64,000 nucleotides of DNA from Psammoneis japonica. Its lineage: Eukaryota. Positions 498 to 45,740 of the stretch are shown one piece after another (positions within the stretch are counted from its first letter, which is position 1; each line of letters opens with the position of its first letter). Both the position numbers and the translations under genes were made by a program. The notes beneath the pieces were generated by a model. The model did not search any database and was not told where the DNA came from. It was given only the letters and a program-made list of their open reading frames with translations. The stretch lies in assembly GCA_008632985.1 (NCBI GenBank), contig QPGO01000090.1:186001-250000 (forward strand), given 5' to 3'.

Positions 498-2414
498 TCA
501 CTTCATTCTCTTACGGAACTGGTTCAGGTACTCGCGAACACTAGCCAGAATGCTAACCACAAAAAAGATGTAAAGGACGTGTAAATGCAATCCAAGCGCC
601 TCTTGAACCTTTCCACCAAGGCTTGATTGACAACCTCAGGTGCCTCCTTCAAATCTGATAAATTGAAACTGATGCGATTGCGCTCAAGCTGCTCAAAAAA
701 GAAATGATTACAAAGTGTAAGATAAGGCTCAGTGTTGGTGAGTCATCCCCCCAACTCGGCATGGTAACGACTTACGATACGAGTAATCCTGGAATCGGAA
801 AGGATAGGCCGAGCCATGTGGGCACATTCCGAGCTAGTCATGCCACGGGGAATGGCCAAGGTGACCTGACTCGACGCCTTGCAGAGCTCCGAAACTGGAA
901 GAGACTTGTTTGGCTCCTCCCCATTGATATCACAGATACCCGTGTAGAGGGTTTGCAAGACACTGCTGTCGGTCACCTTTGTGATTGCCTTGAGCAAAAT
1001 GTCGCCGACGACGTCATTCTTTGCATCTGTTTTGACCAGAGACAGCTCGAAACGTAGAGACGATGGATTCACAAAGAGCACAGCAATCGAGCATGCGTTG
1101 CCGCATGTGTTGCCGAGGCTTCGCATCCTAGTCGTCGCTTCGTCGACATTCGTAGTCTCAACAGAATGAACTTGAATTCCATTGGACTTAAGCTGCGCGG
1201 TAAGAGAGCAGAAACATGTGAGAAACTGAGACGCATGGAAAAGGCCTACCTGCTGTACATTGCTCAGTGAGTCTATGAGACTGTGGACTCACCATACGCG
1301 CCACCTTGATATTGGACAGGATATTCCGTGCCATCCTTGCGCACTCGCCGCCCGTCATGTCTAGCGGCATGGCCAACACGACTTGACTTGCAGTCTGCAA
1401 GAGCTCTGGAGTGAGCGGGGCGTCCCCCAGTTCTTCGCCATTAACATCACAGAGACCTGCGTAATGAACTGCCGACATGTTGCAGTCTTTTGCCGTCTCG
1501 ATTGCACGTGATAAGACAGTATGGGCCGTCATTGTCTCGGGGACAAGCTTTATCAAGGAAACCTCAAATTGACGAAGGACGGGATTCATTAAAAGAACAG
1601 CAACTGATACCTTTTCCTTCGCATGGGTTGCATTGATGACCTCGGGCCTAATCGTAGCAGCGATCCCGATTGAATCCTGCTCGCAATCCGAAACCAAGTC
1701 TTGGAACCCGCGTGGCTCCGGCGCCTTTTCACGTTCGTGGGTAGTAGCAGGGTCGTCCGACTCTTCTGTTTTTCCATCTTTCGCCTCCATATCGCGCTGA
1801 AAATAATCGATTTCCTCGGTATCCATAGTCAGGTGACTCATTGGTTGCTCAAGAACATCGATGGACTCCTTGGACTCCGGTGCATCCAATTCCACCAAAT
1901 GTGTATCGGGAGAAGTGACCGCTTCGTCTTGTGGCGTGTCATCGACCAGTTCGAACGGTGTGGGGGCTGTGGCAGATGCAGCTGTATTGTTTCTTTCGCT
2001 TTTCTTGGACGCTTCATCTTGTCGGATGCAATCATCTTTGGTCGATAAAGCATGTTCGTCGACTTCGAACGAGCCGCCTTCAACCTCGTGAGCACTGAAC
2101 GAAATCAACACTTCCGCAGGAATGTCGTCCCTCTTGCTAGCAGGCCTCTCGGGAGCATCAACCGTCTCTGGACTTTCTCCTGACAGTGATATCTTGTCTT
2201 CCAATGATTTCTGTTCTGCGTCATTGGAAGGTTTTGATCCGGTGCCTCGCGTCGAAGAGATCGACACCGAAGGAGGCGATTGCTCTCGAACGGGACTGTC
2301 GTCCGCAGTCGAAATCAAAGATAGGCTTTGATCTTTGCACAAGCTCTTTCCAGAAATGGCTTTGCGAAGCCGTCCAGCTGCTTTTCGAATCTTCCGCAGT
2401 GGCTTCTTTGGCAT
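498..2414 (-). CDS. Multi-exon hypothetical protein: acidic disordered N-terminus plus two tandem copies of a ~95-aa domain
   Basis: ORFs 1188-2414 and 743-1126 share a repeat: VAVLLMNP..RQFEVSLIK...YAGLCDVNGEE...VVLAMP..M...ECARMARNILS vs IAVLFVNP..LRFELSLVK...YTGICDINGEE...VTLAIP..M...ECAHMARPILS. GT-AG introns near 1200-1290 and 695-765; last exon ends at TGA ~498. Confidence 0.65.
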
Positions 2415-2870
2415 GGTGGTTGTTGATCCGTCGGTGTTTCGATTTCTGTTCCTGGTTGATGCGATCGTGCAAGTGATTGTGAGTTGATCAACATTGTGTT
2501 GTTATTTCGTTGCTACTCTTTACGATGGCAAGTGCGTTGGATATTAGTTTCGTGGCACCATTGACGTTTCTTCATAGTTTACTTTCAAGACTGCCATCTT
2601 ATTGAGCTCTACGAGCGAATTTTGGTCCTGTCGGTCTGTCTGTGTGTCCGGTCGATTGAGGAACTGCCACGTGAGAGCACGAGCGCGAGGAACTCTTTCG
2701 AAATCTCCAAGACAATGAGTACAAACTAAAAGTAAATAAATCTTTTTACTTATTCAAATTTCAAAATGCTTGTTTCCCTTTTTACTAGTAAAATTCGTGT
2801 GAGTTCGTGCAAGTCCCGCACCTACCGAGCCTACCCGCACCTCATTTGTTTCTGCCTCCGACGTTCAACC

Positions 2871-4139
2871 ATGGCGGCTGCAAGCGGTGCATTCCGTTCT
2901 CATCTGATGCAGCAGTTTGCATCAGCTGCACGGACACAAAGTCGCCCACCACTGGCGCTACTGGGGTTGAAAAGCAGAGGATCTTTGCCAACATTGAAAG
3001 AAAGTCCCTCATCCGATGAGCAAACTGAGGAAGAATCATCTGCTCAGTACGCTCAAGTCTACCAATCCTTACAGCTGGCAGCAGCAAGAGATGTTTCTCC
3101 ATCCCCATCCAGACGCCAACCTATTCCTTCTGTAATGTCTGATCCGGTTTTTAATAATCACTTTGTTCTTAACCCGTTAAACGCGCAAGACGATGTTTCC
3201 AACCAAAACGATGATTCCTCTTTTACCTCGGCGTTTGATATGCAAAGCATGATTCAGAATCGCCGTACCGTTTCCAACTTTGACAAGTCTTCACGAAATA
3301 TCAAGGAGGCGCTCGAGCGAGCGGTACTATGTGGTCTTAACGCTCCCAATCATCACAATACACAACCTTTCACCTTTAAGCGTCTCCTATCGCCATCGGA
3401 AAGTACCGATCGGCTAGCTGACATCGCTTACAATGTCAAGTAAGTAGAGTTGAAGTAGAAAGAAAGAGAGCGAATCCGATTTCGGCTGGAAATGTGGCAT
3501 ACTCATCTTACGCTGTCTATTGTTTCCTTGAAAAATACTAATGCAGACTCCGGAAGAAACCAGACTGTGAAAACAACCAACGACTGGCTGAACGTAAAAG
3601 GGATAAGTGGAGCCAGATTCCAGGCTTTCTCGTCACATTGGTGGATGGTCAACCAAAACAACAAGGCGAGGACCAGGAGGAATATGATGAATGTCCCTTT
3701 GTAGGACCCGCCACGGAGAAACAACTAGAAGACGTGAGTGCCGGAGGGTATGCAGTTTTTTGTTTTCTTGGCGTTGTGTGCAATCTTGCTCACTGTGTTT
3801 TCCTCTATTGCGTCAATCTACAAACCGTAGTATGCAGCAGCATGTGCTGCTGTTCAAAATGTTTTGTTATCCTTGCACGCGGAAGGAATTGGGGCCAAGT
3901 GGGCAACGGGGGTAAGTGGAACTTTTGCTACTTCTTCTCCTTATATGCTTGCTCAATCGTCCTCATGGCACTCTTTTTTATGCTCTTTATAGCCGGTGAC
4001 TCGCACACCTGCCTTTCGTTCCTTGGTACAGCACAACAAGATGAGAGAGTGGTTGCGTTAATCATGGTGGGACATCCTCGTCGTGTACCCAGAGCACCGA
4101 GAAGGGACGCCCATGAAAGAACTCTTTCAAGACTTGTAG
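2871..4139 (+). CDS. Nitroreductase-family protein (multi-exon, organellar presequence likely)
   Basis: MIQNRRTVSNF...ALERAVLCGLNAPNHHNTQPFTF; later exons give YAAACAAVQNVLLSLHAEGIGAKWATG and ERVVALIMVGHP; several GT-AG introns. Confidence 0.75.
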
Positions 4140-13266: not shown

Positions 13267-14642
13267 ATGACGATCAAATTGATTGGACGGCTTTTCCAAG
13301 CAGCAGTGTGCTCATTGTTCTTGATTTGTCCATCGGCACAAGGTCAGAGGCTCCGTCCGGGCCCTTTGTCTGCTCTTGGTGGCACCCCGGGTGAACGCAA
13401 GTTGAGTGACAATGGATCTCCAGATGTGACACTGGAGTGGAATTCCGTTGCTCTTGAAATGAACGCCCTCGACCACGCGGGTCCAGCGGGTCCAGCGGGA
13501 GACAGCAGCGACACGCAAGGCCCTCCTGCCTCCGCACGAGCACTGGCCATGGTGCACACTGCCATGTTTGACGCTTGCAACGCAGTGGATCGTCGCCACA
13601 CGCCCCACTTGTACCAAGAAACCGATTCTGGCGCCTCTGTCGAAGCTGCCGTTGCCCAGGCTGCCCATGACGTCCTCCAGCTCTCGTTCCTGACTTCGCA
13701 CCACTGCACGCCGATGCTCTTGCGACGACACTCAATCGCGTCGATGATGACGACGAGAGTGGTGACGACGATAAAAGGAAGGAACGAGGAATCCTGTTGG
13801 GCAAAGGGGCTGCATTGGCCATTCTACAGAAACGAATGGAGGAACAAGACTTTAAATGGTTTAACAGCGCAAACATCTCATGCACCCCCACTGGTGTGAT
13901 TTTAAATCATGATGTCGATCCGGTGAATCCAGACCAAGGATTTGATGGTCCCGGTTTTGGGAACATGTCTGCCTTTGGCATCCAAAGCGCCGATGCGCAC
14001 ATGGCCCCGGAGCCACCCACGGCTGACACTGGTGATCATGCTTTTGCATTTGATGAAGTCAAAGAGTTGGGAATCTTTCGCGGTGGTACGACAGGCTCAA
14101 CCGCCCCAACTGATGACCCTGCGTACGTAACTGCGAATTGTTGGAGTTACAATGGAAGCCCCAAGACTGGCACACCTCCACGCTTGTACAACCAAATTGC
14201 GCGTACGATTGCCATCGATCAACGGAACGAAGTTCACGAGAATGCAAGGTTGCTCGCACTTGTCAACATTGCCATGGCGGATGCTGGTGTCACTGCATGG
14301 AAAACCAAGTGTGAACACAATTGTTGGCGTCCAATTTTGGGCATTCGACTTGCAGCCACCGATGGGAATAATGACACCGATGCGGTGACAGATTGGGAAC
14401 CGCTCGGGGGTTCTCGCAGCAATCCAGTCGTTAAATTCCCAGGCGAGAAAAACTTCTCGCCTCCCTTTCCAGCCTACACGAGCGGTCATGCCTGCTTTGG
14501 TGCGGCAATGTTCAAGACGCTTGCCAACTTTTATCAGAGGGATGACATCACTTTCAAGTTTGTTTCGGACGAATGGAATGGTGAGACGCTTGACGTGTTT
14601 GAAAGGGTCCGTCCCTTTATTGAACGAGAACACACTTCTCTT
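13267..14642 (+). pseudogene. Vanadium-dependent haloperoxidase (PAP2 superfamily, bacterial-type), 5' part; disrupted by a frameshift (~13678) and a copia insertion
   Basis: Signal peptide; WNSVAL..GPPASARALAMVHTAMFDA; ARLLALVNIAMADAGVTAWKTK(C)E(H)N(C)WRP; PPFPAYTSGHA; intronless. Confidence 0.88.
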
Positions 14643-14989
14643 TGTGACAACATTCACACTTGCATGTTTTTACAACAACATCGGACCTCCACGATTCAAA
14701 TCAGAGATCCAAGATTCGAACCCCGTGTGCGATGCTCAGTCTCGAATCCCGCGGAAGCCGAGTCACGAATGCGATGTTTGTTCCTAGCTTCGCGCTTGTT
14801 TAACTTCGCGTTTCCTTTAGATGGCAGCTGCATCTGCTCATAAAAACTGCTCATAATCTTTCTAACGCACTGATTATCACCTCTCAACTTTTGGTACAAT
14901 AAAGTTGCTGATTGATTGTTGTGTCGCAATTACAGCTTTTAATCACTGAAAGTGCAGACGAATCACAGAATTCCGGCTACTTTCCCACA
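14643..14989 (+). repeat. 5' LTR
   Basis: Direct repeat of 20873-21219 with 5 substitutions in 347 bp by hand alignment. Confidence 0.97.
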
Positions 14990-15063
14990 CGCTTCCTCTG
15001 CGAAATCTACAAGTTAAGTCAATCGATCTTAAGCTCTCGATTCTACTTTACTTTGCTGTTACT

Positions 15064-16569
15064 ATGGTCACGCAGACACGAACCGCGGCTGCTCTAGCTG
15101 CCTCTGTTGTAGCTCCCGCTGCAGCACCCGCTGCAGCTCCTACCACTGCTGCTGCTCCGGCAACAGCACCTGCTCCTGCAGCCGCTCCAGTTGCTCCTGC
15201 ACCTCCCCCAGTCGTTCCTCCCGGTGTACCTCCAGGAGGAGGTGGCGGAGGAGGTGGAGGAGGAGGCGGAGGTGGAGTCCCACCAGGTGGAGTCCCGCCA
15301 GGTGGACCACCATTGGCACCTCTGCCACCACTGCCGATCTTCGCGTTGACTCCAGGTCAACACCGTCCCAACATCTTCATCGACTACGGCACATCGCAAG
15401 GCCTCAAACTTTGGAACGCCGCTGCTGCACCGCTGCCGCACGAGTTCAACGGCGATTCAGAAGGTCTCAAACGGTTTTGTGAGACACTCAGTCAACGAGC
15501 TGCCGAGGCAGGATGGAAAACAGGGGCAGGAGACATACTTGCCATTCCCGACGCGAATGGAACTCCACGAGATCTCATCTCCGAGTACGGATTACTCACT
15601 CTACAGGATGTTAGAACCCACGCGAACACCTTCGCGAATCTACCTACGCGACAAGCACAGAACAATGTGCAGATGGCCGAGGCGATCTCTCAATCCCTTA
15701 CAGAAGAAGCAAGAGACAAGACATTGGCTGAGATAGATTCCTATACGATCAATGGAAATCAAATCGGCACACTGTTCTTCAAGCTACTTACGCAAAAGGC
15801 CATCGTTGACACACGCTCTACCACCAACTACTTCCGCGAGAACTTGTCAAGCCTGGATACGTACATGGCGGCTGTCAACTCGGACATCGAAGAGTTCAAC
15901 AAGTGCGCCAAGCTCAACGTTGACGGACTCCAAGCTAGAGGAGAGCAGTGCGACGACCTTATCATGAACCTATTCAAAGGATACGCCGCAGCTGCTGACG
16001 AAGCATTCGTCAAGTACATCATGTTACACAAGGACAGGTACGACGACGGTGAGGAATTCACGCCGACGCAAATCATGACGTTGGCACTGAACAAATGTGC
16101 TAACCTCAAGCGCGAGAAGAAGTGGGGAGCACTGTCACCGGCTGAAGAGCAAATCGTCGCGCTTACAGCCAAGGTAGACTCCATCAAGGATCAGAACCTT
16201 CAGCTATCTAAAGCTTTGAAGGCCAAGGCTGGTTCAACCAAGGAAAGAAGCACACGGTCAAGGAAGACCAAGACCACTCCACGTCAGAGACAGAAAGCGG
16301 ACGAAGCCTGGAAGAAAGTCCCGCCTAAGGAGGACGCTCCTAAGAAGACAGTGAACGGTCATCAGTGCTATCACAAGCGCGTCAACAATCGCGACTATCA
16401 CTGGTGCCCATATCACACTGCTTGGGTCATACACTTACCTGATGATCCGGGCAACCAAGGCTGTAGACTCCGCAAGCAACAGTCTGCTCCATCCACAGAC
16501 ACGTCGGACAAGAAAGTCTCCTTCGCAAGTGCTATCTCCACCATCCTAAATGAAGTGGATCAAGAGTGA
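15064..16569 (+). CDS. gag: Gag protein of the copia element
   Basis: 501-aa ORF directly after the 5' LTR; Ala/Pro/Gly-rich N-terminus, basic C-terminus, Cys/His cluster WCPYH..WVIH...GC. Confidence 0.85.
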   Translation: MVTQTRTAAALAASVVAPAAAPAAAPTTAAAPATAPAPAAAPVAPAPPPVVPPGVPPGGGGGGGGGGGGGGVPPGGVPPGGPPLAPLPPLPIFALTPGQHRPNIFIDYGTSQGLKLWNAAAAPLPHEFNGDSEGLKRFCETLSQRAAEAGWKTGAGDILAIPDANGTPRDLISEYGLLTLQDVRTHANTFANLPTRQAQNNVQMAEAISQSLTEEARDKTLAEIDSYTINGNQIGTLFFKLLTQKAIVDTRSTTNYFRENLSSLDTYMAAVNSDIEEFNKCAKLNVDGLQARGEQCDDLIMNLFKGYAAAADEAFVKYIMLHKDRYDDGEEFTPTQIMTLALNKCANLKREKKWGALSPAEEQIVALTAKVDSIKDQNLQLSKALKAKAGSTKERSTRSRKTKTTPRQRQKADEAWKKVPPKEDAPKKTVNGHQCYHKRVNNRDYHWCPYHTAWVIHLPDDPGNQGCRLRKQQSAPSTDTSDKKVSFASAISTILNEVDQE

Positions 16570-19500
16570 CTGCTCTACAGGTTCACTCTGACACTGCTGC
16601 TGTCCTTGCAGATAGCCGTCACTGTGTCAGTGCTCCTCATAGCGGTCGCTGGCGTCATGAAATGTGCAGCATCGATCTGGATCATACTACTGTTCATGAT
16701 GCTGTCCCTTCCTTCAGAAAAGTGTAAGCGCCTGTCACATGCCGTAATGACGCTGGGTGAGTGGGTCATCTCACATATCCTGGCTGAACTGGGCACAAGA
16801 CGAGTTAAGACTTACCAGCGACGGCCAACGACGAGGTACTGCGCACGGTATCATACGTCGACGAGGCCAGGTCACCGCTCCAGAGTGGCCACCAAGAAGG
16901 CTCACTATGTCATTACACGATACAAGACGGTTAGAGCGTACAACTCAACCACACCATACCGTCCCGAGCGAACGGAGCCCACTTACGATTCGGACTCATT
17001 CGTAATCGGTGTCGACTCGCATTCTTCCTGCACCATGTCCAACGACGAGGCACACTTCATTGGTCCTCTTCGCAAATCCAACAAAGTGGTACTCGGTGTC
17101 AAGGGCTGCTTACGTGCTAAGGGAGAAGGAACAGTGCAGTGGGAAATTGAGGACGACATGGGACGAGTGCACAGCATCAAAATTCGAGACGCGCTACTCG
17201 TGCCGGACTTACCTCATTGTCTTCTCTGCCCGCAGCAATGGAGCCAGCAAGCTAATGACCACACGCCAGAGCCTCACGGAACCGTATCTTGGACTAGGGA
17301 CGACGGACTATTACTGATGTGGGATCAACGCAAGTATCATCGCCTGATTCCATGGTCCGCCAACTCTAACGTCGCCAAGATGCGCTCCGCACCCGGTTCC
17401 AACAAATACCGGACCTTTGCAGCCGCTGTCGAAGAACAAACCGATATCGAAACTATCGAGCACGTGGCCTATCAAGCTCACATCATACCACCAGACGACG
17501 AGAGTATTGCGAATGATGACGAGGCTGCAATTGATACAGACGTCTTCAGAAGTCCATCCGAGACACGTCCTTCCGAGACGCAAGACGCACGCAACACCAC
17601 TGATGAGGATGCTCCTGTCTTATTTGAGCCAACAGACGGAGCAAGTCGTTCAGACTCAGACGAGGAAAACCTAAGGGATTTCACGACACCGGAGGTACAG
17701 CAGGACTTACCGGAACCCATCAACATCATACCAAATGATGACGCCCTTGCTGCCACAGATGACCAGGGTGAACTATTGCGTTGGCATTACCGCCTGGGCC
17801 ACATGTCATTCAAAATGATAAAGCTATTGGCCGCCCTAGGCATTCTACCAAAACGCCTTACAAAGGTACACAACCCAAAATGTGCCGGCTGCCTGTACGG
17901 TGCCATGACGAAACGACCATGGCGCTCCAAGTCCAAGCGGAACCGACGAATCCACTTGGCAACTTCGCCTGGAGAAGCCGTATCCGTCGACCAGCTCGAG
18001 AGTCCTACTCCTGGATTGATCCCACAGCTCAAAGGGAGACCTACGAAACAAAGGTATCGAGCAGCGACAATTTTTGTTGATCATTTCAGCGGATTGGGAT
18101 ACATTTATCTGCAGAAAGGACTTACCTCAGCCGAGACGCTCGAAGCCAAGCACGCTTTCGAGGCATTTGCACGCCGGATGCACGTCCGTATTCAACACTA
18201 TCACACCGACAATGGAAGATTCGCTGATAATGCTTTCATACAAGACGTCAGGAAGCAACAGCAAACAATATCCTATTGTGGGGTCAACGCCCACTTCCAA
18301 AACGGCATCGCGGAGAAAAGAATAAGGGACCTCCAAGAGCAATCTCGGAAGCAACTCCTGCATGCAAAAGTGAGATGGCCAACGGCTATTGAGTTGAACT
18401 TATGGCCAAGCGCTCTCAGGAACTCAAACGAGATCAAGAATCACTTACCGAATCACGAGGACGGTTCTTCTCCGCTGGAACGTTTCTCGTCCGTCAAGGT
18501 CCAGCCTAATCTCAAACAACACCATACCTTCGGCTGCCCCGTCTACGCCTTGCACAACCGGTTGCAGGGAGGAGGTAGGCTGCCTAAGTGGGACCCAAGG
18601 GCAAGGTTAGGAATCAATTTGGGACCATCAACAAGACACGCAGGTTCAGTTACCTTGGTTTTGAATTTGCAGACCGGACTCGTATCGCCGCAATTTCACG
18701 TACAATTTGACGACTTCTTTGAGACTGTTCGTCCATCTGCTGGGAATCCTCCTACATTCTCACAATGGCAAGGCATTACAGGTTTCAGACAACTCAAGAC
18801 AAGGAGTACTTTCAACATCTTTGGGAAATCAAGTGACGTACCGGTTGAGGGATCAGTCCCTACCACAACGGAACCACCTGAGCCGAATTCGGATGTCCCG
18901 TCTCAGCTGCTGCATCCTACTGATACGTCTACCACTGATGACTCATTTGATAATGCCCAACCGGATGATGAAATGCTATACACGCCTCCAGATGATTCTG
19001 ACGCACCATCTGAGCCACAGCGCACTATGGGTCAACCCAGTACCAGTAGGTCCGGCCGACAACGACGCCCGACCGAAAGGATGCGCGAGAGCCAACTACA
19101 ACGGGCTCAAGGCATTGTCTCCTACAATGCAGAGGCAGAGGCATATTATGATGCGATGCACGAGGATGATTACAAACTGCAGGACGACATGGACTCACCT
19201 ATCTCTTTTCTGGCCAGCTCGGACCCCGACACCATGTACTTTGATCAGGCTATGCGTGAACCTGACAGAGACGAGTTTATCAAAGCCTGTGTTAAGGAGG
19301 TCAATGATCATATTGAAAGGAAACATTGGATACTCATTCCAAGAGAGGACGTACCTGACGATGTTGATGTTCTCCCTTCGGTATGGTCTATGAAGCGCAA
19401 AAGAGATATTAAGACCCAAGCCGTCTACAAATGGAAGTCCCGACTTAATGTGCACGGCGGAAAGCAAGAGTATGCTGTCAACTACTTCCAGACCTACTCT

Positions 19501-20829
19501 GCCGTGGTCTTCTGGTTCACTATCCGGCTCCTACTGATCATTGCCATTCTTAAGAAGTGGCATACACGCCAAGTCGACTTCGTTCTGGCGTATCCGCATG
19601 CCGATATCGAATATGATATGTACATGGAATTACCTGCAGGAATTGAAACAAAATATGGCAATGGTAAGACTCATGTTCTGAAGTTGCTCAAGAACTTATA
19701 TGGACAAAAGCAAGCAGGGAGAGTATGGCAAGAACACTTACGTGATGGATTGTTAAGGATTGGTTTCGTACAATCGGCAGTTGATGAGTGCCTGTATTTT
19801 CGTGGCAATGTCATTTTCATTCATTATGTCGATGACGGTATCTTTGCATCCCCTGACAAGTCTGCTATTGACAAGGCGATACAGGATATCAGAGATGAGA
19901 ATTTTGATATTGATGATCAAGGCACTCTGGACGACTATCTCGGTGTCAACGTCGAGACACTACCAGACGGCAGAATGAAACTTACCCAACCTCACCTTAT
20001 CAATCAGATACTGGAGATGGCCAATATTCCAAAGAGACTACCAGATAAGTCTACTCCTGCTCCTTCCTCCAAGATCCTCCACGGGCATATGAGTGAGCCT
20101 GCTTTCCAAGGGAGCTTTCATTACCGATCCATCATCGGCAAGCTCAATTTTCTGGAGAAGAGCACTCGACCGGATATCGCTTACGCGGTGCACCAAGTCG
20201 CACGCTTTTCTTCCGATCCCAAGGTTTCTCACGGTGAAGCCGTACTATGGCTCTGTAAGTACCTAAGGTCAACCAGAACTGAAGGTATTATACTACAGCC
20301 CTCAACGGACAAGTCCCTTGAAGTTCACGCCGACGCGGACTTTGTGGGCAATTGGAATAAGCTGACTGCACCCGATGACGTCGGCACTTCCAAATCTCGA
20401 ACTGGGTTTGTCATCACCTATGCAGGATGTCCGATTGTCTGGACGTCCAAGCTACAGACTCAGATCGCGCTCAGCACTACTGAAGCTGAATTTATCGCTC
20501 TTTCGGAAAGTCTTCGAAGCGCCATCCCAATTATGAACCTCATTCAAGAATTTATGGATCACGGTCATAATGTCCCTTCTAAGACACCAGTCGTACATTG
20601 TAAGGCTTTTGAAGACAATTCTGGAGCATTGGAGATCGCGAGATTGCCTAAGATGCGTCCTCGGACAAAACACTTCAACCTCACTCTCCACCACTTTAAA
20701 GACCATGTTCGCAAAGGTCTCATATCAATCCTACCAATTGATACGGCGGATCAGATTGCAGACATTTTCACCAAACCTCTACCACAGAATCTCTTCGTTA
20801 AACACAGGAAATCGCTCCTTAAGTGGTAA
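16570..20829 (+). CDS. pol: Pol polyprotein (protease, integrase, reverse transcriptase, RNase H), in frame with gag after a single TGA
   Basis: PR VDSHSSCTMS; IN WHYRLGH..CAGC, VSVDQL/HTDNG/NGIAEKRIR; RT KSRLNVHG, QVDFVLAY, LYGQKQAG, YVDDG; RH ADADF, STTEAEF, EDN, DQIADIFTK. Confidence 0.97.
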   Translation: MLYRFTLTLLLSLQIAVTVSVLLIAVAGVMKCAASIWIILLFMMLSLPSEKCKRLSHAVMTLGEWVISHILAELGTRRVKTYQRRPTTRYCARYHTSTRPGHRSRVATKKAHYVITRYKTVRAYNSTTPYRPERTEPTYDSDSFVIGVDSHSSCTMSNDEAHFIGPLRKSNKVVLGVKGCLRAKGEGTVQWEIEDDMGRVHSIKIRDALLVPDLPHCLLCPQQWSQQANDHTPEPHGTVSWTRDDGLLLMWDQRKYHRLIPWSANSNVAKMRSAPGSNKYRTFAAAVEEQTDIETIEHVAYQAHIIPPDDESIANDDEAAIDTDVFRSPSETRPSETQDARNTTDEDAPVLFEPTDGASRSDSDEENLRDFTTPEVQQDLPEPINIIPNDDALAATDDQGELLRWHYRLGHMSFKMIKLLAALGILPKRLTKVHNPKCAGCLYGAMTKRPWRSKSKRNRRIHLATSPGEAVSVDQLESPTPGLIPQLKGRPTKQRYRAATIFVDHFSGLGYIYLQKGLTSAETLEAKHAFEAFARRMHVRIQHYHTDNGRFADNAFIQDVRKQQQTISYCGVNAHFQNGIAEKRIRDLQEQSRKQLLHAKVRWPTAIELNLWPSALRNSNEIKNHLPNHEDGSSPLERFSSVKVQPNLKQHHTFGCPVYALHNRLQGGGRLPKWDPRARLGINLGPSTRHAGSVTLVLNLQTGLVSPQFHVQFDDFFETVRPSAGNPPTFSQWQGITGFRQLKTRSTFNIFGKSSDVPVEGSVPTTTEPPEPNSDVPSQLLHPTDTSTTDDSFDNAQPDDEMLYTPPDDSDAPSEPQRTMGQPSTSRSGRQRRPTERMRESQLQRAQGIVSYNAEAEAYYDAMHEDDYKLQDDMDSPISFLASSDPDTMYFDQAMREPDRDEFIKACVKEVNDHIERKHWILIPREDVPDDVDVLPSVWSMKRKRDIKTQAVYKWKSRLNVHGGKQEYAVNYFQTYSAVVFWFTIRLLLIIAILKKWHTRQVDFVLAYPHADIEYDMYMELPAGIETKYGNGKTHVLKLLKNLYGQKQAGRVWQEHLRDGLLRIGFVQSAVDECLYFRGNVIFIHYVDDGIFASPDKSAIDKAIQDIRDENFDIDDQGTLDDYLGVNVETLPDGRMKLTQPHLINQILEMANIPKRLPDKSTPAPSSKILHGHMSEPAFQGSFHYRSIIGKLNFLEKSTRPDIAYAVHQVARFSSDPKVSHGEAVLWLCKYLRSTRTEGIILQPSTDKSLEVHADADFVGNWNKLTAPDDVGTSKSRTGFVITYAGCPIVWTSKLQTQIALSTTEAEFIALSESLRSAIPIMNLIQEFMDHGHNVPSKTPVVHCKAFEDNSGALEIARLPKMRPRTKHFNLTLHHFKDHVRKGLISILPIDTADQIADIFTKPLPQNLFVKHRKSLLKW

Positions 20830-20872
20830 GACGTTTTCGAGTCATCATTCCACCCGACATTGTTGAAGGGAG

Positions 20873-21219
20873 TGTGACAATATTCATATTTGCATGTTTT
20901 TACAACAACATCGGACCTCCACGATTCAAATCAGAGATCCAAGATTCGAACCCCGTGTGCGATGCTCAGTCTCGAATCCCGCGGAAGCCGAGTCACGAAT
21001 GCGATGTTTGTTCCTAGCTTCGCGCTTGTTTAACTTCGCGTTTCCTTTAGATGGCAGCTGCATCTGCTCATAAAAACTGCTCATAATCTTTCTAACGCAC
21101 TGATTATCACCTCTCAACTTTTGGTACAATAAAGTTACTGATTGATTGTTGTGTCGCAATTGCAGCTTTTAATCACTGAAAGTGCAGACGAATCACAGAA
21201 TTCCGGCTACTTTCCCACA
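20873..21219 (+). repeat. 3' LTR
   Basis: Preceded by polypurine tract, followed by TSD CTCTT. Confidence 0.97.
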
Positions 21220-21224
21220 CTCTT

Positions 21225-21461
21225 TCGTTTGCGGAGGCCGAGAATGCCGCATCCCGTGTCTTCAACGGTGTGCACTGGCGCTATGATGGCAGCGAAGCTT
21301 GCATTGCCGGCAACGGCATTGCCAATGAGATCTTTGACCACATCTTGAGGCCTCTCGACGGCGGAGATAATGCCACACCTGATGTGGACATCGAAGCTGC
21401 CATCAATGCCATTCTTTTGGATGCCAGGAATGCCATTCACAACAATGGCTCTAGCGACTGA
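21225..21461 (+). pseudogene. Vanadium haloperoxidase, 3' part (resumes in frame after the TSD)
   Basis: Removing the element and one TSD gives ...EREHTSL|SFAEAENAASRVFNGVHWRYDG..., the third active-site motif SRxxxxxH. Confidence 0.9.
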
Positions 21462-41861: not shown

Positions 41862-44800
41862 CTAACAAAGTGGTACCTTCACTTTGTTCAACATTTCGAG
41901 CATCTTGTAAATGGCCACCTGGCACCTGCCAACGCTGTTCTTCCACTTTTTGGCCTTACGATTTGCCTTGGCAACTCCCAAGTTCGTGTCGAGTACATTG
42001 CCTAGGAACGCCTCGTCAAGGATACCCTTGCCTCGGTATGCGCTGATAGCATCTTCTAGTAGCGTAATGGCACAGCTACTTGCAAGTCTGCCAACATTAT
42101 TGGAGAATTCAGGGGCGGTCTCTCTGAGTTCTTCGTTCAATCTCAGGGCTTCTTTGAGACTGCTGAGTGACTTGCTCAACCGGCGGTTCTTCTTTATTAA
42201 CGTTTTTGAGGACAATGCCTGGCGTTTCGATTTCAAGAAGATGGCCTTGTCGTCACCGTTACTGTTGAAACCTGCCCCATAGAGTCCTGACACCTTGGCT
42301 ACGCAGGCAGAGTAAGCACACGTGACGTCTTTGAAGTTCCCCGGAAACGGCTCACGCTTATTGGTGTCGAATGAAACTGTCGTACAATCCCGAAAGATAG
42401 TTTTGTCAGGGCCGCGAACCTTGGCACATACCTTGACTTTTGCAGCCGTACCTGCAATGCCATGGCAGGTGAGGACAGGATTGAGGGCTTCGTTATCGTT
42501 AAAGGAGCACTTGCCATTGTCGACAGTCCAACGAAACCGAGCTCCTTCAAAGGCGGTGACCTTGTTAAGATGAATCGGTACATCTTGACTACCACTGTAG
42601 GGTCCCCCCAGCTGGAGCTCAGGAAAACACTCCAGGTCAGGGAATTCACTGCCACGGAACGTCCAGACATCATTATCCCACAGTTTTTTCATCCGACCTG
42701 GCATTTTATCCTCATCAATAATCTTGACCCCACTGTTGCCGCCGGGGGAGTTGCCTATCGAGGGATTCATGGTACAGAAGTTAGTGCGGAAGGATCCAAC
42801 CTGTCCGTCACGGAAGCCCACCAGACCACCCACTTTCCTATCCGCTCCACCTGTAACTGAGCCAGTTGCAAAGTTACCCTCTACGGCACCATAGCCCTGC
42901 TTACCAATGAGCCCGCCACCGGCACTTCCATTAGAGTTCACGTCACCTCGGGAGAAGCTATTTCTTATGGAGTAACGATGAAATGCCTCTCCGACCAGAC
43001 CACCTGCATTCTTTCCTTTGACACTGCCTGTCGCAAAGCAATTGCTTATGTCTGAAGCAGTGAGCGAACCGACCAATCCACCAAAATAGTCACCTTCCTT
43101 CCCAGATGAAACCATAACGTCATTGGCGCTGCATTCTTCCATACGACCACTTCCAAATCCACCCACTAGGCCACCGATGCGACCAAAATAATCGCGCTCG
43201 TTGTCAAACAGGCCACTGACTCTTCCACCAGTTGCGTGGCAACATGATAAGCCCGTCTCGTCCGCATTTCCCATAACCGCACCGACAAAGCTCAATGCGG
43301 ATACAGTTGGACGCCGGATGAATACATTTCGGATTTCAGTCTGGTAAGCCTTTCCAACGGCTCCACCAACTGCGCTGATACCTCTCACGGTTGGGCTATT
43401 GATAACGACATTGTGGATACTTGTGCTTTGCCCAGAACAATGTCCGACAAGTGCCCCAACATCATAAGTTCCCGTCACATTCGGTTTGTCGAGAACGAGG
43501 TTACGAATCTCTGCATTGACGCTGATGCTTCCAAACAAACCCTGCCCAAACCCTTCGCCTTCGTACTTGATGAACAAATCACGAATCGCAAAACCGTTAC
43601 CATCGAATGTTCCAGTAAACTCGTTCACATAAAGCTCGCCGATAGGAACAAAATTATGGTTGGAAGGAGCTTGGATATCATTGGTTAGAATGTAACTTTT
43701 GTCCAGACCACTTTTGGAGATACTTTGCAGGTCTTCATACGTAGATACCTTGCACGGCTTGTTGCCTTCTGTCCCACAATCATCCTCAAACCTAATGGCT
43801 ACAGTCGTACAGTCCTCCACTGTTTGATCGTCATACGATGAAGTCACGCAAACCCCAACGGAAATGATGCCCGCGACGCTCGAAATATCACGGCAGGTGA
43901 GAATTGGATGAAGAACTTGGGCATCAACGAACGCGCACTTGTCATTATCGACCGACCAATAGATGTCTGATGCTGTAGAGGTGGCTTGATCCAGTGGAAT
44001 CTCTGCACCTTCATTCCCATTATACGGCCCTCCAGCACTAACCACGGGCTTATGTGAAGTTACAATTGCCACGTTGGTACAATCACGGAAAATTGTGCTG
44101 TTGGCAAAACTGGCCCTTCTACACGCGAAAACGGAAGCGCCCGACATTTTGTCCATGCCACTGCAGGTGAGGACTGGAGCAACGGCTTTCTCATCGCTGA
44201 ATACACAAATGTCGCTATCGATTGTCCACAGGTAGCTGGCTCCATAAATTGATACGCCATCTAGCGGGATTGGCTTGTTTAGAGACCTGGTTGTCAAGTC
44301 GACGCGTCTACAATCCTCAAACATATCCACATGCGTAGCACTGACTTTAACGCATGCTTTGATATTGCTGGTCTCTACCTCAGTGCCACTGCAGGTTAGC
44401 ATCGGATGAACGCTCTTTGCATCACTGAAGGCACACTTGTCACTATCAACCGTCCATTGGTAATTGGCTTCATCAAGTGAAAGAGATTCACTCAAATGAA
44501 GAGGCGCATCTGGCTTACCGAAGTATGGCCCACCAGCCACGTTCTTTGGAAAGCTCTGGAGACTTGGATAACTGTTTTCTGGGAATACCCATTTGCCGTC
44601 ATCCCATCCTGACATGGGCTTATTATCTCCATCTTGAAAGTATTCTGGATCTGGAACAACCTCGACTTGGTCGTTCTCGGTCTTAGAGTTACCAATTGCA
44701 GGATGCAAGGTGCAATAGTTTTCTTTCAGTACAAGAGGACGCGACGGCACCCGTGTGCCGATCAGACCACCAACTTTCGCTTCGTCGGCTCGGCGGAGCG

Positions 44801-45740
44801 AACCGGTCGCAAAACAGCTCTCTACAAAATTCTCATATCCAGCTTCAGTGCCAATCAAGCCACCTCCCACTCCACTGCCAGACACATTAATGTCACTACG
44901 AGCATAGCTGTTTGATATTGCTTCATATTCCAGGTTGCCAACCAGACCACCGGCACTCTTGCAACCAGTAACGCTGCATGCAGCATAGCTGTTGTTGAGT
45001 TTTTCGCCATGTAGCGAGCCAATCAAGCCACCGCACTTCTTTGCTTCGTTCCCATTGACCTTGACATATTCTGCACTGCATTCGTCAATGAAGCTGCCGA
45101 AGGATGTTCCGATAAGTCCACCGACATCCGACTTTCCAGTAACCATTCCACCGCGGACGTGGCATGCCGTAATTCGAGGCTGAGTGCCGATCCGTTCCCC
45201 GCTGCTTGCATCACCCACAAGTCCGCCGACAGAGCCCTTCAAGGCTTCAACTTGGGGGTTTTCAACCACGATATTATGGATTCTAGGCCGGAGGTTGGTA
45301 TCATGACCCCACGTTGTGCCGACAAGTGCGCCGACACCAGATCGGCCTCTCACACGTGGGTTCTTGAGAATCAAGTTGCGGATTTGCGCATTGTCAAAGA
45401 CGCTCCCGAAAAGTGCCATATTACTATTGCTGCTATAATCAATATTCAGATCACTTATGGAATGACCGTTTCCCTCAAAAAGTCCTCTGAAAGAGCGAAT
45501 AGGGAAAAAGTTATCTCCTGCGGCGACTTTGATGTCATTCATCAAAATGTAGTTCTTTGTTAAGGATTCGCCGGAAAGACTTTTCAGATCTGTGTATGTG
45601 TGTATCTCGCAGGGACTAGTGGATTCTGTCCCACAGTCCTCGGTGAATTTCGCCATTGCGCGTAGCATCATGCGGCTGCTCATCAACAACCAGCATGCTC
45701 TAACAATGCTGCGCACTCCACGGTAAGTCATGCTGGTCAC
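41862..45740 (-). CDS. Large intronless GLUG-motif/beta-helical surface protein with two duplicated modules and Cys-containing GGPY repeats
   Basis: 1292 aa; FxEDCGTE..PC...TY.DL...YIL.NDI...F.G.F.GNG..I.DL.I occurs twice; many VGGLVG repeats; about 4 units of GGPY..W.VD..KC.F.D...P.LTC. Confidence 0.8.
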   Translation of the reverse strand: MTSMTYRGVRSIVRACWLLMSSRMMLRAMAKFTEDCGTESTSPCEIHTYTDLKSLSGESLTKNYILMNDIKVAAGDNFFPIRSFRGLFEGNGHSISDLNIDYSSNSNMALFGSVFDNAQIRNLILKNPRVRGRSGVGALVGTTWGHDTNLRPRIHNIVVENPQVEALKGSVGGLVGDASSGERIGTQPRITACHVRGGMVTGKSDVGGLIGTSFGSFIDECSAEYVKVNGNEAKKCGGLIGSLHGEKLNNSYAACSVTGCKSAGGLVGNLEYEAISNSYARSDINVSGSGVGGGLIGTEAGYENFVESCFATGSLRRADEAKVGGLIGTRVPSRPLVLKENYCTLHPAIGNSKTENDQVEVVPDPEYFQDGDNKPMSGWDDGKWVFPENSYPSLQSFPKNVAGGPYFGKPDAPLHLSESLSLDEANYQWTVDSDKCAFSDAKSVHPMLTCSGTEVETSNIKACVKVSATHVDMFEDCRRVDLTTRSLNKPIPLDGVSIYGASYLWTIDSDICVFSDEKAVAPVLTCSGMDKMSGASVFACRRASFANSTIFRDCTNVAIVTSHKPVVSAGGPYNGNEGAEIPLDQATSTASDIYWSVDNDKCAFVDAQVLHPILTCRDISSVAGIISVGVCVTSSYDDQTVEDCTTVAIRFEDDCGTEGNKPCKVSTYEDLQSISKSGLDKSYILTNDIQAPSNHNFVPIGELYVNEFTGTFDGNGFAIRDLFIKYEGEGFGQGLFGSISVNAEIRNLVLDKPNVTGTYDVGALVGHCSGQSTSIHNVVINSPTVRGISAVGGAVGKAYQTEIRNVFIRRPTVSALSFVGAVMGNADETGLSCCHATGGRVSGLFDNERDYFGRIGGLVGGFGSGRMEECSANDVMVSSGKEGDYFGGLVGSLTASDISNCFATGSVKGKNAGGLVGEAFHRYSIRNSFSRGDVNSNGSAGGGLIGKQGYGAVEGNFATGSVTGGADRKVGGLVGFRDGQVGSFRTNFCTMNPSIGNSPGGNSGVKIIDEDKMPGRMKKLWDNDVWTFRGSEFPDLECFPELQLGGPYSGSQDVPIHLNKVTAFEGARFRWTVDNGKCSFNDNEALNPVLTCHGIAGTAAKVKVCAKVRGPDKTIFRDCTTVSFDTNKREPFPGNFKDVTCAYSACVAKVSGLYGAGFNSNGDDKAIFLKSKRQALSSKTLIKKNRRLSKSLSSLKEALRLNEELRETAPEFSNNVGRLASSCAITLLEDAISAYRGKGILDEAFLGNVLDTNLGVAKANRKAKKWKNSVGRCQVAIYKMLEMLNKVKVPLC

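Follow-up and report, generated by a model that had tools for sequence, protein, structure and literature searches.

Five differences between the long terminal repeats of an intact Ty1/copia element in Psammoneis japonica, and a possible transition hotspot at TpA/TpG steps

Context-dependent mutation and the under-representation of the dinucleotide TpA are a general theme of the literature on dinucleotide signatures. The deficit is nearly universal and its cause (i.e., mutation or selection) is debated; young, datable insertions showing loss of TpA in a defined trinucleotide context would make the question testable. The closest described elements include the CoDi elements of Phaeodactylum, e.g., Blackbeard and Surcouf. 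More broadly, the Ty1/copia retrotransposons of diatoms have been placed in CoDi groups, as an excerpt of PMC2806351 sets out. Here we report on an intact Ty1/copia long terminal repeat (LTR) retrotransposon that occupies positions 14643-21219, within the coding region of a host gene, in a stretch of 64,000 nucleotides from Psammoneis japonica (contig QPGO01000090.1, positions 186,001 to 250,000 of the forward strand; hereafter the window), and on five differences between its two LTRs, from which a first-pass annotation had proposed that mutation at TpA is recent or ongoing.

The element is an ordinary copia, with the following parts:

14638..14642, plus strand: target-site duplication, left copy, CTCTT, read from the sequence
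14643..14989, plus strand: 5' LTR, 347 bp, TG...CA ends
15064..16569, plus strand: gag open reading frame (ORF), 501 amino acids, open
16657..20829, plus strand: pol ORF, 1390 amino acids, open
20865..20872, plus strand: purine-rich tract GAAGGGAG, adjoining the 3' LTR, read from the sequence
20873..21219, plus strand: 3' LTR, 347 bp, direct repeat of the 5' LTR
21220..21224, plus strand: target-site duplication, right copy, CTCTT, directly after the 3' LTR, read from the sequence

Pol contains matches to gag_pre-integrs (365-415), SH3_retrovirus (616-686) and RVT_2 (898-1125); as integrase-related domains precede RVT_2, the domain order is that of Ty1/copia. Gag matched no Pfam family, and nine protein relatives with 33-59% identity were found for it; its N-terminus (15200-15290) is rich in Ala and Pro and contains low-complexity poly-Gly, a trait common to several of these relatives. 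The tract GAAGGGAG is likely to act as the polypurine tract. No TGG-type primer-binding site was recognised by eye after 14989, the window holding no tRNA gene for comparison.

Alignment of the two LTRs, which are 98.6% identical and both have TG...CA ends, yielded exactly the five differences listed in the first-pass annotation (5' LTR/3' LTR):

14651/20881 (LTR position 9): C/T
14657/20887 (LTR position 15): C/T
14659/20889 (LTR position 17): C/T
14907/21137 (LTR position 265): G/A, TGC vs TAC
14932/21162 (LTR position 290): A/G, TAC vs TGC

Four of the five switch between TpA and CpA or TpG (the TpA class), as had been claimed, with a nominal P of 0.012 (81 of 347 opportunities). Two further observations of the first-pass annotation are accurate and carry little weight. 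All five differences are transitions, but since 666 of the 781 variable places of the family in the DNA run X1 (85%) are transitions too, this outcome is expected (P = 0.45) and uninformative. Similarly, none of the five falls on any of the 19 CpGs of the LTR, which is unremarkable both for sites inside a CpG (P = 0.56) and for sites that make or break one (P = 0.21). Three differences lie within 9 bp (14651-14659; P = 0.013, simulation) and are thus unlikely to be independent, which leaves about three effective events; with the cluster counted as one, all three events belong to the TpA class (P = 0.013; post hoc). The context T-[A/G]-Y (R-[T/C]-A on the other strand; T-R-Y below) applies to four of the five differences, with P about 1e-3.

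Run X1 is the single DNA run that contains the family, and its contigs were compared with the 5' LTR, the interior and the flank of the element, skipping 15229-15282 as a repeat; run X3 contributed no matching contig. A total of 1152 contigs match the element at 85-100%, and the summed word depth, which is not a copy number, is ~760-3800 over the element vs 57 over the flank. The transition:transversion ratio of the family is 5.8. Contexts were read from the best-supported 40 of 784 variant rows, and this scope applies to all context counts from X1 given here; 32 of the 40 are transitions. The TpA class accounts for 16 of these 32 (22.6% expected; P = 6e-4) and changes that make or break a CpG for 10 (26% expected). 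With the LTR sites excluded, 13 of the 32 are in T-R-Y context as compared to 11.5% expected (P = 2.5e-5), i.e., ~3.5-fold over opportunity vs ~1.2-fold for the CpG class. The narrower context T-R-C accounts for 10 of the 32 and for two of the five LTR sites, and these 12 of 37 compare with 2.3 expected (P = 1.3e-6); T-R-C was one of 16 classes examined and a post hoc choice, and its excess survives correction for the 16 classes. Pairs of related copia elements from other organisms showed T-R-Y frequencies near expectation (2/12, 43/266, 6/38 and 3/15) and transition:transversion ratios of ~1.6-2.2 (the four pairs with at least 12 transitions); a fifth pair, L010/L011, differs by one transition and three transversions.

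A sole X1 contig covers the host flank, where it shows three differences from the window in 331 bp (at 14357, 14375 and 14420), all of them synonymous third-position C/T changes before A that look like real alleles. The contig ends 12 bases short of the insertion point and may represent the other allele.

The direction of change was assessed in gag with relatives as the outgroup. The first-pass annotation had named two candidate Tyr-to-Cys sites:

15904..15906, plus strand: gag codon 281 (TGC), coding for the Cys of FNKCAK; six of the nine relatives have Tyr, one has Cys and two have His
16096..16098, plus strand: gag codon 345 (TGT), coding for the Cys of LNKCAN; seven of the nine relatives have Tyr and two have Phe

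The predominance of Tyr among the relatives bears out the proposed replacements, but not a post-insertion date for them. The G at 15905 is common to all X1 contigs over the site and the G of codon 345 also occurs in a copy that is ~13% diverged (49 other letters over 363 bases), so that both are old, family-level changes. Tyr108, Tyr318 and Tyr326 are nearly invariant among the gag relatives and are encoded by TAC in the window and by TGC in other X1 contigs; the conserved Ile158 is encoded by ATA in the window and by ATG in most X1 contigs. All six outgroup-polarised gag codons (108, 158, 281, 318, 326 and 345) therefore changed from TA to TG, with no change in reverse. The X1 variants show no strand asymmetry (A>G 187 vs T>C 178). 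In a further run, X2, which looks like a transcriptome though it is labelled 'DNA?', position 15905 reads TAC (Tyr), whereas the window and every X1 contig there read TGC; X2 differs also at 15861, 15876 and 15924, which indicates that the transcribed copy is not that of the window and belongs to a minor subfamily.

Over the window the observed/expected ratio of TpA is 0.45, with 0.38 in non-ORF DNA vs 0.49 in long ORFs; the stronger deficit in non-ORF DNA indicates that it is not a codon effect. Within the element the ratio is 0.64-0.66, i.e., TpA is less depleted than in the surroundings. In non-ORF DNA outside 14643-21224, CpA/TpG reach about 1.4 and CpG 0.68. The least depleted of the TAN trinucleotides is TAC/GTA (0.52 vs 0.38-0.42).

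Overall, we tentatively favor, with a probability of roughly 45%, the reading that an intact copia element in a PAP2/vanadium-haloperoxidase-like gene has LTRs that diverged by about three events since insertion, in a genome, or at least a family, with a context-specific transition hotspot at TpA/TpG steps and a net loss of TpA. The three changes within 9 bp would have arisen together, through a multi-nucleotide mutation or a short tract converted from another copy of the family, and the remaining two would be isolated A/G changes. The suggested net direction, TpA loss, draws on the six polarised gag codons and on how strongly TpA is depleted in the non-coding DNA around the element. A genuine transition bias tied to this context is plausible but not proven; in our reading the excess would be mutational rather than technical and might act on host DNA generally.

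Several results weigh against this reading. The five LTR sites are unpolarised and none of them is among the visible variant rows, which are 40 of 784 picked as best supported, and both the TpA class and the T-R-Y motif were defined after the data had been seen. Synonymous transitions of the element number 16, of which four are of the TpA class, no excess over the 22% expected, two lie in T-R-Y (counted from the printed contexts) and seven are of the CpG class. The nine T-R-C changes of the element all alter an amino acid and all are in gag; from 16539 onwards, the class is absent from 10 coding transitions (nine in pol and one at the 3' end of gag; P = 0.011, Fisher's test). T-R-C changes confined to non-synonymous gag sites are not what a mutator acting genome-wide would be expected to leave. 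Of the 17 transitions in four old, small repeats of host DNA within the window, 3 belong to the TpA class. As the conserved columns of gag include nine for Tyr vs three for Cys, the 6:0 ratio of polarised changes is not significant by itself, and in the window lineage the 535 conserved columns of pol contain no Tyr-to-Cys, one Tyr-to-His and one His-to-Tyr change. Polarisation by majority state, by which the window-private changes of the TpA class came to three gains and three losses and which would have weighed against the favored reading too, was set aside as unreliable, the outgroup contradicting it at 15386 at least. The proposal of TpA-directed mutation is partly supported, by the recurrence of the TpA class and of T-R-Y in differences independent of the LTRs, and not by the synonymous subset, which is at expectation. 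The associated claim that such mutation outpaces CpG decay had rested on the absence of CpG hits among five differences; the ~3.5-fold vs ~1.2-fold enrichments agree with it, while the synonymous counts (CpG 7/16 vs TpA 4/16) have the opposite order.

Ordinary drift, by which a few differences would have been drawn from a spectrum rich in transitions, and the context pattern read post hoc into a handful of sites not displayed at random, agrees with the probabilities obtained for five transitions in five and for no CpG hit, with the synonymous subset and the old in-window repeats, with the balanced deep-time changes in pol and with the fact that the data are the best 40 of 784 rows. We nevertheless regard it as unlikely, since the T-R-Y excess is independent of the LTRs, the T-R-C excess survives the 16-class correction and the control pairs of other organisms show no excess. 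The signal could also be technical, i.e., due to residual long-read consensus errors or to mis-polishing within a repeated family. Among nanopore mismatches, TAG to TGG is the most striking and TAC to TGC the next in an excerpt of PMC5553090, and nanopore substitution errors are biased towards transitions according to an excerpt of PMC8486125; the nine T-R-C changes of the element are all non-synonymous, several of them at conserved Tyr, as errors would be, and at 15905 the window has TGC where X2 and most relatives have TAC or Tyr. On the other hand, T-R-G (TAG/TGG) is not enriched (2 vs 1.9 expected), 501 gag and 1390 pol codons are open, so that indel errors must be rare, the direction is symmetric (five sites with TGC/GCA and five with TAC/GTA in the window), X1 variant contigs have depths of ~33-79, near the 57 of the flank, and the three flank differences are all at synonymous third positions, as real alleles would be. 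We find a technical origin distinctly unlikely.

All five LTR differences may equally be read as C-to-T or G-to-A changes, four of them at CpA, with three clustered on one strand. Cytosine deamination at CpA, similar to repeat-induced point mutation (RIP) or linked to methylation, would then have created TpA, and a single processive event would account for the three same-strand C-to-T changes of the 3' LTR. This direction is in keeping with mutation accumulation in Phaeodactylum, for which PMC6604790 lists CG, CC and TG as mutagenic and reports a GC-to-AT bias of 2.2-fold, and with TAC/GTA being the least depleted TAN trinucleotide. However, the six polarised gag changes run from TA to TG, variation relative to the window is slightly higher at A/T than at G/C sites (0.111 vs 0.091 per site), the ORFs are intact, and in the element TpA/ApT is about 0.65 and (CpA+TpG)/(ApC+GpT) about 1.2, far from RIP-affected values, which combine a high first with a low second index; we consider a reversed direction very improbable. 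Finally, the differences might have been imported by short ectopic conversion tracts from polymorphic family copies, in which case the sites would reflect family polymorphism and not local mutation. The many family contigs in the same run (1152), the non-random three-site cluster (P = 0.013) and another contig with one inserted A at 14907 suit such import. The alternative haplotype was seen in no copy among the best 40 of 784 variant rows, though, and the two isolated sites would each need a tract of their own, so that import as an account of all five sites appears quite improbable.

The stronger proposition of an active A:T-to-G:C process at T-A-Y that dominates unselected changes (LTR pairs, dead copies and alleles), recurrently turns Tyr into Cys in the retrotransposon and causes the non-coding TpA deficit is in our view doubtful. 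If it were true, the origin of TpA under-representation would be mutational rather than selective, and would have been caught in young insertions. If the signal were technical, it would be a warning that what looks like biology in the substitution spectra of repeats can stem from long-read assembly. LTR-based dating would be affected as well, since hot contexts and clustering of events make an insertion look older than it is. With the rate given for Phaeodactylum (4.77e-10 per site per generation; PMC6604790) as a stand-in, the five differences correspond to ~1.5e7 generations and three events to ~9e6. The LTR divergence of 1.4% is similar to the allelic difference in the flank (3/331), and the element is "young" solely in that its own frames and the surrounding host frame are still open.

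Searches for same-family copies covered the window, viral and metagenome contigs, and proteins. No second copy of the LTR or the element was found elsewhere in the 64-kb window, the viral contigs contained neither a pol relative nor a match to a 28-base LTR word, and the metagenome contigs contained no match to the LTR word. A pol scan of the metagenome contigs yielded 11 loci, all with 37-60% protein identity, and at this distance their LTRs are not comparable with those of the present element. Protein searches revealed no gag or pol of the same family, the best matches having 58% (gag) and 64% (pol) identity; the closest gag and pol relatives are from marine metagenomes, and one gag relative is from an MMETSP transcriptome. 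The sole LTR pair in the metagenome loci (L004, 12952-13078 and 18750-18876, spaced 5798 bp and ending at the locus edge) has 127 bp visible and differs by one transition, outside the TpA class. Near-identical copia copies on separate metagenome contigs were found for L006/L007 and L010/L011 (98.7% and 99.8%). An attempt to read the state of LTR positions 9-17 from a contig that ends 45 bases into the LTR was dropped, as a branch at either of two places explains that end.

The element interrupts the reading frame of the PAP2/vanadium-haloperoxidase-like host gene, which has the following parts:

13267-13896: VCPO_N domain, upstream of the insertion, domain match
13836..14642, plus strand: piece of the host ORF before the insertion, weak match to PAP2, profile positions 47-76
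21225..21461, plus strand: host ORF piece downstream, weak PAP2 match, profile positions 92-119

Both PAP2 matches are weak (E about 0.07 each) and cover complementary, consecutive parts of the profile on either side of the insertion; when the element and one copy of the duplication are removed, the host frame continues in frame for 78 more codons. Elsewhere in the window, the best feature match of a host Obg-type GTPase is a cluster whose commonest taxon is Bacillariophyta, which we take as a lead only. On the minus strand, a host ORF of 1289 codons (41862-45731) contains a GLUG motif and weakly matches the N-terminal part of M26 IgA1-type metallopeptidases, domains whose known occurrences are mostly bacterial.

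As a separate observation, contigs of run X2 skip at least 14 stretches of 70-113 nucleotides of the element (the listed 14 of 16; window 15432-19741, minus strand). The 14 listed stretches have GT..AG ends on the strand antisense to gag-pol, and the donor reads GTAAGT in eight of the 14. This hexamer occurs 10 times in antisense orientation in the element (1.5 per kb, vs 0.16 per kb elsewhere in the window), falling in each of the three sense frames, and only once in sense orientation; inside the pol matches of six relatives (L001-L006) it occurs 11 times antisense vs 0 times sense, at other positions. An antisense gene was considered and rejected, as no ORF of more than 127 amino acids is present in the antisense RNA after splicing. 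Spliced antisense transcripts have reportedly been described for the TART element of Drosophila; a literature search found no direct precedent for antisense introns in LTR elements and no such transcripts for a diatom copia, an absence that is not proven.

Compared by general features, the element resembles the diatom Ty1/copia retrotransposons in its copia domain order, short LTRs and 5-bp duplication, and differs from known diatom copia elements in that its best relatives have only 58-64% protein identity. Editing of A to I by enzymes of the TadA/ADAT type recodes Tyr (TAC) to Cys in E. coli and fungi, and the changes described here likewise convert A to G at U-A-C and Tyr to Cys; unlike such editing, they show no strand asymmetry, and RNA editing cannot make the two LTRs of one insertion differ. 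As in fungal RIP, CpA/TpG and TpA are exchanged by transitions within repeated DNA, in a cluster on a single strand, whereas the composition indices lie outside the RIP thresholds, the ORFs are intact, the outgroup indicates A-to-G changes and the host is not a fungus. The systematic nanopore mismatch involves the same trinucleotide as the changes found here (TAC/TGC; T-R-C 12 vs 2.3 expected), but the latter occur in both directions, without enrichment of TAG/TGG and without indel damage. The literature searched yielded no direct precedent for a TpA or T-[A/G]-Y mutation bias in diatoms, although this absence is not proven. Finally, the window conforms to general TpA under-representation in being deficient in TpA with CpA/TpG in excess, and departs from it in that the deficit is strong (0.38 in non-ORF DNA) and the differences are concentrated in the narrower context T-[A/G]-Y.

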